NCBI GenBank assembly: GCA_016218805.1
Contig: JACRCW010000085.1
Location: forward strand, 1 to 64,000
Origin: Deltaproteobacteria bacterium
Lineage (GTDB): Bacteria; Myxococcota; JACRCW01
Reading direction: 5' to 3'
Length of the DNA stretch: 64,000 bases
Shown here: positions 30,473 to 36,402 of the stretch, piece after piece
How the letters are laid out: each line of letters starts with the position of its first letter
How positions within the stretch are numbered: the stretch's first letter is position 1
Notes under the pieces: generated by a model
Told to the model about the DNA's origin: nothing
What the model saw: the letters and a program-made list of their open reading frames with translations, nothing else
The model's database searches: none
Position numbers and translations under genes: made by a program

Positions 30473-30919
30473 TCACGGGGTCGTGACGGTCACGACGATG
30501 GGATCACCGGCCCGGGTCACGCCGCCCCGGACCACGCGGGCGAACAGGCCCTCGCGCGGCATGATGCAATCACCGGTGGCTTTCCGGATGGGGCAACCCG
30601 CGTTGTGGCACTCCTTGCCCACCTGCGTGATCTCCAGCAGCACCTGTTCACCCAGTTGCAACTGGTCACCGGGCTTCAACTCCGCGGTCCCCAACCCGCG
30701 CGTGATGACGTTCTCCGCGAATGCGCCGTGACTCAGCGCGGGCAGGAGCGCCTTCACGCGGTCGATCGATTCGCCGGCCAGCAATGAGACCTGACGGTGC
30801 CAGGCGCCGGCGTGGGCATCATTCTCCACGCCCCATTGGGCGCCGAGGGTCACCTCAGCCTGTTCCTTCTTGACCACGCCCGTCCTCCAGCTGGTGCAGA
30901 CGGCTTCCACGTGCGCCAT
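30473..30919 (-). CDS. MOSC domain protein
   Basis: DAHAG.WHRQVSLL, GAFAEN, TQVGKECH and CIMPREG. Confidence 0.9.
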   Translation of the reverse strand: MAHVEAVCTSWRTGVVKKEQAEVTLGAQWGVENDAHAGAWHRQVSLLAGESIDRVKALLPALSHGAFAENVITRGLGTAELKPGDQLQLGEQVLLEITQVGKECHNAGCPIRKATGDCIMPREGLFARVVRGGVTRAGDPIVVTVTTP

Positions 30920-30931
30920 GGTGGTCCGCCC

Positions 30932-31573
30932 TCAGGATGCGGCGTTGGCCAAGGGGACGCCCATGCTGCCCGCATCCAGCTCAACCACTTCACCGAGCGC
31001 GACGGCCACGCCACGCATGAACGGCGTGTGCGCGGCCCGCGCCAGGTCCGCCGAGAACAACGGAACCCACGAGGCAACGTGTGCCGCGAAGAACTCCCGT
31101 TCCGTCTCCACGCTCTCACCCTGCCCGCTGAGGCGCCGGTCCACCAGCGTGGCCACAAACCCCAACTCCCGCGCCACGTGGTCCGGCGGGCACTGCGTCA
31201 TGTCGTCGTAACCCAGGCCGGACGCCACGTACGCGGCCAGGACATCCCGGGCCGGCCCCTGCATCACCAGCCGGTCGGGCGAGCGGTACACGCTCTCCCA
31301 TGGAGGCGCGGCCAGCTTGCCGGGCCCCTGGAACAACCGCTGGTGGTCACGCTGCACGTCCTCGGCGCCGGGAGCATCCAAGGCCGTGCGCATGGCGTGC
31401 AGTCCGTGCAGGGGCCGGCCCAGGTGCCTCTCCACCGCGTCGGCCAGCGTGGCCAGCACCTGCTCGCGCCGCAGGGCCTCCAGCGTGTCTGCGTCTGGCG
31501 CTTCGGACAGCAGGGCGCCCAGCAGGAGATACAGGTCACGCCGGATCGGATCGGGAAGGCCCACGGAACCCAT
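30932..31573 (-). CDS. TorD/DmsD-family maturation chaperone
   Basis: RLFQGP, APPWESVY and PPDHVARELGF. Confidence 0.9.
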   Translation of the reverse strand: MGSVGLPDPIRRDLYLLLGALLSEAPDADTLEALRREQVLATLADAVERHLGRPLHGLHAMRTALDAPGAEDVQRDHQRLFQGPGKLAAPPWESVYRSPDRLVMQGPARDVLAAYVASGLGYDDMTQCPPDHVARELGFVATLVDRRLSGQGESVETEREFFAAHVASWVPLFSADLARAAHTPFMRGVAVALGEVVELDAGSMGVPLANAAS

Positions 31574-31582
31574 GAATGCTCC

Positions 31583-35200: not shown

Positions 35201-35268
35201 CGGCGGGAAAGGTCGCCCTGCCCGGCCGTCATGGTGGTGGTCTCGAGATCCTTGCGCGTGTTGCTCAT
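32233..35268 (-). CDS. Tat-exported Mo/W-bisPGD oxidoreductase catalytic subunit, Psr/Phs/Arr-like branch
   Basis: SRRSFLK Tat motif, CNMCGGQC...CCKG FS0 site, YDPDRVKTPMKRVG, PGTDGALAL, SETAQYAD and a probable Mo-ligand Cys in SNHANLCD. Confidence 0.9.
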   Translation of the reverse strand: MSNTRKDLETTTMTAGQGDLSRRSFLKWTGAGVGGLALTTIFPVPFRSLSAAETARLNDYLGGRWIPSCCNMCGGQCGIWAYVRGGIVEKIEPTTANPNALTDAVNPNNVANVDAPKTRLAGGFAASGRDAAPTGTFSAVAATDVGRLCCKGNSGMKSLYDPDRVKTPMKRVGPRGSGQFVPISWDQAIEETSRRLTTLKQQYGARSVVWFGEDHSFTHPQQDFCDAFGSPNYSNHANLCDTSRKAHYKATIGDERPLADMENCDVLFVWGWNFLSALKWIHLAAIFSRGRRDRNFKFIYVDPVFNTTASRADDWVPLRPGTDGALALAIAKELVDYDAGTGTKIDKAWMDQWAVGFTEYKKYLDGDGTYDAQPKNAAWGEAQTGVAAARITALARELGDAFAAGKRICIDTWSGGGHHTNATQGGRAINCLNLLLGGVDRPGTLLRPNRSGPARLSAHASWKNANGTIKYDGWRPDGRDDITLPEPAVSNRTLVDTTGTTWTAGTTVPAGTKFHKKYAFSHGSGIYVEMRERMLEQRDHLGFPYPMKAAVIVFQNLLMSTPNTQRNIQALEAMDFIVCVDTHLSETAQYADILIPGSSYLERFDFNASWVTFFTTGLRQPVVPSWIGGRSEAQFFLDLGRHMGFTGFDAANFRDVDENLNKKEWDTARAGYTNNVDWPTLKQKGVWIETGASRGGTFYHKYATTYSALNKYSSAWMHVYVNGTTNEVRTGTTAGAGGVLIGTVASATPAANAAITLDASLGAGTGFRGAVMDVVAVTYGGDQRYVVRGKGTSVNLGIAPPGATDVSPPADGTNFFTGFGTETLFAQFWSKTFDDYFKAGATKYPAGASVSGDLRYHPLPYYLPVEDGPTATHPLFFTSWKEVEHTHTRTFNNAYLMEMKSESKLYVHPRLADKLGLAENDQAWVETPVSRIRVRIHRTEGIHNELASSADPLTPGIATVGFHRGFGHWALGKLAVGKGAHDGWILPGKAEIHSGQAVHKEVPCRIYKFEA

Positions 35269-35289
35269 GGCTTCAGCTCCTCAAGGTCA

Positions 35290-36402
35290 TCAGCGGAGGG
35301 TCGGGTAGTTGGCGTGACAGCCGGTGCACTTGGCGGGGACGTTCACGGACTTGCGCAGCGTGGGGCCCGTCTCGTTCTCCGGGTCCAGCCGCGTGTCATG
35401 GCAGGACGTGCAGCCCAGGGAGACATGGATGGCCGTGCCGGAGGATTGGATGGAGTGCCAGCGGCGAATCGTCGGGTCACCGGGCGCCAGTTCGTTGGCG
35501 CGGTCGCCATGACAGGTCGTGCAGTTGGCATTCGTGAACATCGCGGTGTTCGCGGGGTCGTGGAACTTCCACTCGTTGGGCACGCGGTTGAGCCGCACCA
35601 CGGGCACGGTCACGTCGTTGAAGCTGCCGGCCACCAGGTTCGCCATCACCGGCGTGGACGTGATGGGACGGCCGGTCTCGCGAACGATGTCGCCTTCCTG
35701 GCTCACCTCCACCGCGACCGCAGCGACGGTGTACAGGCCGAAGGGAATGCGCGGGAAGATGACCTGCCCGGACGCATCCACGGCGGCCGGCGGCGCCACC
35801 GGCGGGTCCAGCGTCACCATGGCCGCGGTGACCGCACCCGTCACCGGGCCCACCAGCGCGCCGGTCTGGAAGTCCACCACCGTGACAACGAGGTTGGCCA
35901 CGGAGATTCCCGCGCAATCCGCCACGTTCACGGAGCCATCACCATTGGCGTCTTCAGTGACGAGGTCACCGACACCGTTGCCATTGAGGTCCCAGCACGG
36001 AGTTCCCGCAGCGCCGGTGGGTCCGGTGTCTCCGGTGGCTCCCGTGTCACCCGTTGCGCCGGTGGCTCCCGTGTCACCGGTGGGTCCCGTGTCACCCGTT
36101 GCGCCGGTGGCTCCCGTGTCACCGGTGGGTCCTGTGGCACCGGTGCCACCCGTTGCACCGGTGTCACCCGTTGCACCGGTGGCGCCCGTTGGCCCCGTGT
36201 CGCCCGTGGGTCCGGTATCGCCGGCGGCACCCGCAGGTCCGCGCGGCCCGGTGGGTCCGGTGGGGCCTGTTGCGCCGGCGGCGCCTTGCTGCCCTTCGGG
36301 TCCCTCGGGTCCCTGCTCACCGGGACACCCCAGCAGGAAAAGACCTGCGGCCATGGACAGCAAGACGGGGCCGAGGACGCCTGGACGGGTTCGCATGGTC
36401 AC
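35290..36402 (-). CDS. Lipoprotein with collagen-like stalk and C-terminal triheme cytochrome c
   Basis: Lipobox LLGC, 36 G-X-Y triplets, DLNGNG/DANGDG loops and three CxxCH (CTTCH, CTSCH, CTGCH). Start at 36402 or 36396. Confidence 0.88.
35998..36321 (-). repeat. Collagen-like (Gly-X-Thr-rich) coding repeat
   Basis: 36 uninterrupted triplets from GEQ to GTP. Confidence 0.95.

Follow-up and report, generated by a model that had tools for sequence, protein, structure and literature searches.

The closest described counterparts of the operon reported here are the ArrAB(C)D/ArrXSR systems (6cz7; ArrX, 6x6b), which combine a Cys-ligated catalytic subunit A, carrying a molybdenum bis(pyranopterin guanine dinucleotide) cofactor (Mo-bisPGD) and a twin-arginine translocation (TAT) signal, with a four-cluster Fe-S subunit B, a TorD-like protein D and an XSR regulatory set, often without an NrfD subunit, and the PsrABC/PhsABC enzymes (2vpw), in which the Cys molybdenum ligand, FS0 and the TAT signal are also found. 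A third system, the antimonate reductase AnrA of Geobacter sp. SVR (anrXSRBAD), was reportedly described by Kambara in 2024; AnrA is said to form a novel lineage of the DMSO-reductase family near Arr and Psr, and to be XSR-regulated and periplasmic, with no NrfD in its operon, the gene order B-A-D and no cytochrome gene. Here we describe an operon in a 64,000-nt stretch (hereafter, the window) of contig JACRCW010000085.1 of Deltaproteobacteria bacterium GCA_016218805.1 (genome G000, which has its own paralogs of the lipoprotein described below on other contigs). In this operon, a Mo-bisPGD enzyme is preceded by the gene of a heme-carrying lipoprotein, C, with a collagen-like stalk. The operon comprises the following genes:

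35290..36402, minus strand: C subunit, collagen-stalked triheme c-type cytochrome lipoprotein of 370 aa; a homolog lies directly upstream of A in 14/14 loci
32233..35268, minus strand: A, Mo-bisPGD catalytic subunit of 1011 aa, with a TAT signal without lipobox, FS0, Cys240 as Mo ligand, and FGEDH at the position of the ArrA RGRY motif
31583..32197, minus strand: B, four-cluster Fe-S subunit without signal peptide
30932..31573, minus strand: D, TorD/DmsD-like chaperone
30473..30919, minus strand: MOSC-domain protein; position not conserved in the 15 loci of the close clade

The order cytochrome-lipoprotein, A, B, TorD-like D, MOSC is that of the original prediction, which was made from the DNA sequence, and all five genes lie on the minus strand with intergenic gaps of 21, 35, 9 and 12 bp. 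The prediction had proposed a search for this lipoprotein architecture beside Mo-bisPGD genes. Scanning GTDB genomes turned up 18 loci, mostly from Myxococcota or Deltaproteobacteria metagenome-assembled genomes (MAGs); 15 of them belong to a close clade, and several of these are cut by contig ends. Among the best 120 of 1738 matches, 46 sequences are closely related to A (51-76% identity); after a gap, identity resumes at about 44% with a wider family. A homolog of the triheme lipoprotein directly precedes A in every one of the 14 in-clade loci with upstream DNA, one C copy having CxxxCH. The operon had also been predicted to contain neither NrfD/PsrC nor a cytochrome b subunit, and eight NrfD, PhsC and cytochrome b queries indeed matched nothing in the window or in the 15 in-clade loci; NrfD was found in 3/3 control loci. 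The MOSC gene was rejected as a conserved part of the operon, since it does not occur at the same position in the 15 in-clade loci.

Because the A clade is monophyletic (FastTree, 1.0), while in the sister pair L021/L022 the partner is a hexaheme that weakly matches the C heme domain, and the wider-family relatives L025, L030 and L121 use NrfD, C looks like a replacement for NrfD. It weighs against this view that all 15 relatives encode NrfD proteins away from the operon. The operon is rare, being present in 4/401 genomes of the phylum including this one (two candidates were scored per genome); no ortholog was found in 40 near relatives, and the metagenome scan returned no in-clade locus among the 80 matches listed, only wider-family and distant enzymes. 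Two further members of the wider family may be mentioned: an archaeal one, in which A, B and a small triheme lipoprotein lie beside two tatC genes (L020:3216-6754), and one in which B is fused to the A N-terminus (L122:7612-10344).

The protein sequence of C bears out the architecture originally read from the gene, i.e. a lipobox, 36 G-X-Y triplets, a DxNGNG/DxNGDG stretch, a beta domain and three CxxCH motifs:

36325..36402, minus strand: signal peptide and lipobox with Cys26, nearly invariant in the ortholog alignment; Pro at +2 and Pro at +7
35998..36321, minus strand: 36 unbroken G-X-Y triplets, rich in Thr at the Y position; a triple helix of this length would measure about 31 nm
35914..35997, minus strand: Cys-bounded acidic DxNGNG/DxNGDG module, C residues 136-163; optional, 0-4 copies in relatives
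35587..35907, minus strand: transthyretin/CnaB-like (carboxypeptidase regulatory-like) beta-sandwich spacer, from the AlphaFold 2 model and a fold match
35302..35562, minus strand: c7-like triheme domain with a conserved LRKQV-type motif and YP end; predicted B-docking face

The unbroken G-X-Y run spans residues 25-135 (37 triplets with the lipobox Gly, 36 in the mature protein), has Thr at Y in 26/37 triplets and Pro at X in 11/37, and matches Pfam Collagen (E 1.6e-16). A collagen triple helix rises 0.29 nm per residue; the stalk probably forms a true triple helix, and the up to nine hemes originally proposed would require C to trimerise. The acidic module, a type that occurs in unrelated proteins as well, is a probable disulfide-bonded, Ca-binding unit. 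In the AlphaFold 2 model, residues 166-370 (mean predicted local distance difference test score, pLDDT, 81) form a beta sandwich and a small heme domain. The sandwich aligns with 1qmu (VIA Z 11.3, rmsd 1.6, 80 residues); the fold-search matches listed for C fell on this domain and do not speak to the heme domain. The latter matches Cytochrome_C7 (PF14522) with 25.8 bits against a cut-off of 24.8, and has CxxCH at residues 294, 331 and 359 together with three spare His (281, 316 and 326) as candidate distal ligands, of which His281 is replaced by Met in 3/15 operon copies. No match above 0.82 was found for C in the ESM Atlas.

C is very probably a dedicated subunit of the AB enzyme, because in the complex model its heme 3 docks on the cluster loop of B, and because its gene stands directly before A in all 14 loci with upstream DNA. 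The original prediction regarded C as the redox partner or tether of AB and suggested modelling its heme domain with the enzyme. Both the conservation in 14/14 loci and the B-C model support this idea: with three hemes, the B-C complex scored 0.84, compared with 0.00 for the best of 3 controls, the mark for such scores being reached by 116/157 solved and 2/215 mismatched pairs (counts that are rough for these alignments and ligands). The model runs had at least 92% of contacts in common, with a partner pLDDT of at least 89. On the C side, the interface consists of residues 306-318 and 343-370, which take in the region around His316, heme 3 and the conserved residues of the LRKQV-type motif and YP end; on the B side, it consists mainly of the Cys102-Pro113 cluster loop and residues 184-192. 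The model may, in part, reflect resemblance to solved Fe-S/cytochrome pairs.

No Cys is present between the RR motif and FS0 of A in 12/13 relatives, and AB would therefore have no lipid anchor of its own. In the mechanism we propose, D would mature A, and AB would cross the inner membrane by Tat, with B presumably carried along. The lipoprotein C would take the place of an NrfD anchor, its lipid and stalk tethering the otherwise unanchored AB, and electrons would pass from C to B, FS0 and Mo via heme 3, which is modelled on the cluster-binding loop of B. The only NrfD module of the genome (L133:5636-10300, contig C151) encodes a tetraheme, a DsrO-like Fe-S protein, a DsrP-like NrfD and a triheme, and has no Mo subunit; its role may be that of a quinol oxidase further upstream, not of an anchor for B.

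No literature was found joining a collagen-like stalk, a multiheme cytochrome and a lipoprotein, nor anything evidently relevant on collagen triple helices with c-type cytochromes and extracellular electron transfer, in a search that covered few subscription papers and no supplements. The conserved wiring of this uncharacterised Psr/Arr-related molybdoenzyme is apparently so far undescribed; it would be a third way to wire a Psr/Arr-type molybdoenzyme, with neither NrfD nor a porin-cytochrome operon. C resembles OmcA/MtrC and PgcA of Geobacter in being a lipid-anchored multiheme protein, and PgcA, as far as the available part of its description goes, is an extracellular triheme with repeat spacers (PMC5732950). 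Unlike in PgcA, whose Pro-Thr repeats lie between the hemes and which, according to the same part, reduces minerals directly, in C the G-X-Y stalk precedes a compact c7-like head predicted to dock on the Fe-S subunit.

A stalk peculiar to this operon was rejected, since eight other cytochrome lipoproteins of G000 have collagen stalks of 33-50 triplets and near-identical N-termini:

contigs C16, C40, C48, C62, C90, C101, C110 and C154: further stalked cytochromes of G000 (L111-L118)

Five of the eight are OmcA/MtrC-like (four over the cut-off of the OmcA/MtrC model and one just under), two are octahemes (one HAO/HDH-like) and one is a diheme. The collagen stalk is a genome-wide module. OmcA/MtrC was found in 14/15 operon-bearing genomes versus 153/401 genomes of the phylum sample, a background that is possibly undercounted (again, two candidates were scored per genome) and in which kin are not independent.

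The stalk length of about 30 nm originally proposed holds for the window copy. It does not hold as a general value, and a fixed 30-nm ruler was rejected, because the stalks of orthologs span 0-45 triplets: the operon stalk has 15-45 triplets in 13/14 loci and is missing from L016. Of 39 full-domain C-family representatives chosen from the best 150 hits, 26 have G-X-Y triplets, one has another repeat, eight are apparently N-terminally cut and four are intact without a stalk. These stalkless copies weigh against the best explanation given below. The length of the operon stalk was paired with the mean OmcA/MtrC stalk length of the same genome in 14/16 genomes (G408 has no OmcA/MtrC match and the G414 contig does not include C; four loci cut at the 5' end and five duplicates were left out). 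Counted in triplets, the lengths correlate with a Spearman's rho of 0.90 (reached by 0 of 5000 permutations), and counted in linker residues with a rho of 0.83 (reached by 1 of 5000); three hand corrections altered neither value. Contrasts calculated on the A tree (not the host tree) gave r 0.61-0.62 (13 contrasts, p about 0.02). Because the operon stalk tracks the OmcA/MtrC stalks of its own genome, the data suggest that the heme heads are held at a common height. The stalkless L016 copy, a single case, is nested among stalked ones, and the OmcA/MtrC stalks of its host family have 0-13 triplets. This within-genome match gives the collagen spacer a testable form, namely that heme heads would have to stand at equal height for electron exchange. 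A second spacer repeat with paired Cys was observed, interleaved with or replacing G-X-Y in OmcA/MtrC N-termini:

L146, L150-L154, L156, L160 and L162; P0271, P0282 and P0292: CTV..N.DG...I.C repeat

As for the enzyme itself, A has a TAT signal, FS0 and molybdopterin domains with Cys as the Mo ligand, and falls below every NCBIfam cut-off listed (PhsA, 280.9 bits vs 694; ArrA NF041714, 130.9 bits vs 1600). Its top Foldseek match is ArrA (6cz7), and its family groups with ArrA-like proteins, with PhsA outside (FastTree 1.0 on a short branch, with one PhsA and no PsrA/SrrA reference). The ligand loop His-x3-Cys-x4-Lys is kept (H236, C240 and K245, the equivalents of ArrA His189, Cys193 and Lys198); it does not discriminate, because PhsA has it too. 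Identity with an ordinary PhsA or ArrA was rejected, the scores being far under the cut-offs and RGRY missing. Unlike Arr, which it resembles in the ligand loop and the frequent lack of NrfD, the present operon has a dedicated stalked triheme lipoprotein; unlike Psr/Phs, it has no PsrC or PhsC, an A subunit about 250 residues longer, and an XSR and ars context. By these tests, A belongs to none of Arr, Arx and Phs; it represents an uncharacterised Cys-ligated lineage near ArrA/PsrA, and AnrA is an obvious candidate relative. Markers of the arrA type would miss this lineage. The accessible text of PMC10100899 mentions Cys-ligated families, as yet without names, at the base of the chalcophilic enzymes. 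In the ESM Atlas, A matched generic molybdopterin clusters only, and a search for ArrA in 15 genomes gave no match anywhere, the controls likewise giving none. A beta-rich insert at residues ~700-830 (pLDDT 70-90) is enlarged in the window copy.

The genes flanking the operon, which the original prediction did not mention (moaA and X/S/R, 36646-41617, and the ars cluster, 23915-28955), bear on the substrate:

36646..37710, plus strand: moaA, start codon uncertain
37782..38672, plus strand: X, periplasmic binding protein of the ArrX/AioX family that senses oxyanions, pocket residues Y81 C99 Y128 S158 T160 H189 D207
38669..40096, plus strand: S, HAMP sensor histidine kinase
40234..41617, minus strand: R, sigma-54-dependent response regulator, start uncertain
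23915..28955, minus strand: ars cluster with arsR, arsD-CMD, arsA, acr3, arsC (LMWPc) and an arsM-like methyltransferase

The names acr3 and arsM were assigned from Pfam SBF and Methyltransf matches and gene context. X is closest to ArrX (E 6e-50, vs 2e-27 for AioX) and holds all seven AioX pocket residues (Tyr88, Cys106, Tyr131, Ser161, Ser163, His192 and Asp210), with Thr for Ser163; the arsenic-binding pocket Cys is present in 13/13 copies. The X gene was seen in 10/15 in-clade loci, and ars genes lie beside 4/15 of them (5/16 counting the window). In one locus (L023:770-5244), genes for MarR, GAPDH, MFS, acr3, arsC and arsA were observed upstream of XSR, an arrangement that resembles the GAPDH-ArsJ arsenate resistance pair. 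Sensors of the AioX/ArrX type bind the substrate of their enzyme, as stated in the available portion of PMC5908839. Because of the ArrX-like XSR sensor and the ars genes, the substrate is probably an arsenic (As) or antimony (Sb) oxyanion, and C-A-B would be an XSR-induced respiratory terminal reductase. Several observations tell against this assignment. A has FGEDH where ArrA has RGRY, the active-site motif, and ArrA-like controls show GRY; nor does A contain the ArxA motif GRGWG (both motifs according to the accessible part of PMC13685797). Ligand specificity is not settled by the pocket residues by themselves (PMC5908839, same portion), and in 11/16 loci, several of them cut short, ars genes were not seen in the neighbourhood. 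Were As(V) or Sb(V) the substrate, uncultured groundwater bacteria of this myxobacteria-like kind would be overlooked mobilisers of As or Sb.

The best explanation of these data, which we put forward tentatively and at somewhat less than even confidence, is a surface-tethered C-A-B reductase of As or Sb, whose stalk levels its head with those of the OmcA/MtrC decahemes. C would go to the outer membrane, with a modest leaning to the outer face; heme head and AB would be raised by the stalk to roughly the level of the stalked OmcA/MtrC-family decahemes of the same cell, the putative upstream donors. A more elaborate version, which we consider rather unlikely, has a whole surface layer of length-matched stalked cytochromes, in which C is the socket for a secreted As/Sb molybdoenzyme fed laterally by OmcA/MtrC-like decahemes and porin-30-heme conduits; if it were true, the cell could respire mineral-bound As or Sb without uptake.

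On the location itself the evidence is evenly balanced, the surface and the periplasm (from either membrane) appearing to us equally probable for C-AB. In Myxococcus xanthus, Lys at +2 retains a lipoprotein in the inner membrane and Ala at +7 marks it for secretion, according to the part of PMC3222651 available. Lys at +2 occurs in 0/15 C orthologs; read by these rules, the +2 and +7 residues suggest the outer membrane, without specifying its face. A precedent for the surface is DmsEFAB of Shewanella oneidensis, a molybdoenzyme AB secreted to the surface through a type II secretion system (T2SS) and fed by c-type cytochromes (PMC9048795, available part). OmcA/MtrC of Shewanella are, in what could be consulted, likewise T2SS-secreted and surface-exposed, and G000 has the T2SS secretin GspD. 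Unlike the Dms operon, which in the same available part has its own porin and decaheme, the present loci have no porin and a stalked triheme instead.

Against the surface stand the following points. Asp is found at +2 in 2/15 C orthologs and Ala at +7 in 3/15, the window copy not being among the latter. An MtrB/PioB porin was not found in G000 or its 15 relatives (16/16; MAGs are incomplete), and therefore no known outer-membrane conduit is at hand. Collagen-stalked nonahemes adjoin inner-membrane NrfD modules in L232, L233 and L234, an adjacency that fits a periplasmic role equally well. Stalks that follow the width of the periplasm would give the same match in length.

These points favour the strongest rival, to which we give a somewhat lower probability than to the surface-tethered complex: the same C-A-B complex would be periplasmic, with C held by the outer membrane's inner leaflet, or by the inner membrane, and a stalk, its length following periplasm width, that bridges to a quinol-oxidising module such as the C151 cluster, which has no Mo subunit of its own. 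Since the sensor X is periplasmic, a soluble inducer gets at least that far. The periplasm is also where known Psr/Phs/Srr/Arr enzymes reside (PMC10100899, accessible text), and ArrC is often missing from bacterial arr clusters (PMC13685797, accessible part). However, a stalk of 36-45 triplets with its head and AB would, if rigid, be longer than the periplasm, typically 20-30 nm wide; moreover, the stalk is common to OmcA/MtrC, a known surface family, and proteins with candidate barrel ends beside 24-33-heme cytochromes could be conduits.

The latter are Pfam-less proteins with beta-barrel-like ends, encoded directly beside 13-33-heme cytochromes:

L131:9334-11565: barrel-end protein
L129:8324-10234: barrel-end protein
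L130:9920-11680: barrel-end protein
L233:15422-17269: barrel-end protein
L232:17124-18836: barrel-end protein

They may be the missing, undescribed porin-cytochrome conduits, although the amphipathic-strand score is crude and separates candidate porins poorly from controls. Searches of Pfam, the PDB and homologs did not lead to a name for them; 8 homologs at 44-59% exist for the L131 protein. Loci L232-L234 encode a tetraheme, an Fe-S protein and NrfD with the stalked nonaheme; two of them, L232 and L233, add a cytochrome with 13 or 24 hemes as well as an OmcA/MtrC-like decaheme. In L126:6624-14474, the neighbour of a 14-heme protein is a protein of 2616 aa that has 19 CxxCH motifs and partly matches myxosortase-dependent M36 peptidases.

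Regardless of location, the same architecture could act on a compound of sulfur or selenium (polysulfide, thiosulfate, solid sulfur or selenite), with the ars genes incidental. We consider this unlikely, even if the best profile match of A is PsrA (E 2.5e-84), its best hidden Markov model and sequence matches being PhsA and PsrA, acidic residues stand in place of the arsenate-binding Arg motif, and ars genes are missing near most loci: identity to PhsA is only 26% and the PhsA score of 281 bits is far from its cut-off of 694, the family is nearer to ArrA-like proteins in tree and fold, and X keeps its As-binding Cys throughout.

It is more doubtful still that the G-X-Y run is a flexible low-complexity linker spread by repeat exchange, with no stable triple helix and a functionless length. 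Repeat exchange does explain part of the length match, since the triplet composition of the own genome ranks first in 5/13 cases; near-identical stalks also occur on the G000 paralogs (cosine 0.92), the stalk is dispensable and swapped for other repeats in some relatives, and Pro occupies few X positions. Nevertheless, runs of up to 45 triplets keep their Gly register, the lengths go together even where composition differs (e.g. G403, G407, G412 and G413), and the sole stalkless operon belongs to the host family with short OmcA/MtrC stalks.

Finally, an Arx-like oxidase of As(III) or Sb(III), whose electrons would either leave via C for OmcA/MtrC and minerals or be directed inward to a nitrate reductase, is improbable: R is a sigma-54 activator like AioR/ArxR, which ArrR of C. 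arsenatis is not, NapA is encoded in G000, and Arr and Arx are bidirectional in vitro (so far as the sources could be consulted), yet X is far closer to the arsenate-binding ArrX than to AioX, and A lacks the ArxA motif.

Upstream of the operon, a sigma-54-like box was recognised:

36452..36466, minus strand: sigma-54-like box, 10/11 letters of the consensus, second G of the -24 GG missing

Under a strict GG/GC rule, this box in the window was no better than shuffled sequences (190/200). The boxes upstream of most orthologs are better; because the second G of the -24 element is missing here, unlike in most orthologs, which keep it, the promoter of the window operon may be weak or atypical. Four DNA sequencing runs gave no clean stalk-length variants of the C gene, and the window DNA was found in groundwater metagenome runs of one study, one of which may be its source. 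Between the operon and the ars cluster lies a membrane adenylate/guanylate cyclase gene (29013-30365, minus strand, start uncertain). Within the ars cluster (27944-28558, minus strand), ArsD is fused to a carboxymuconolactone decarboxylase (CMD; AhpD-like) domain, and stand-alone CMD genes occur near the operon in loci L017 and L019.

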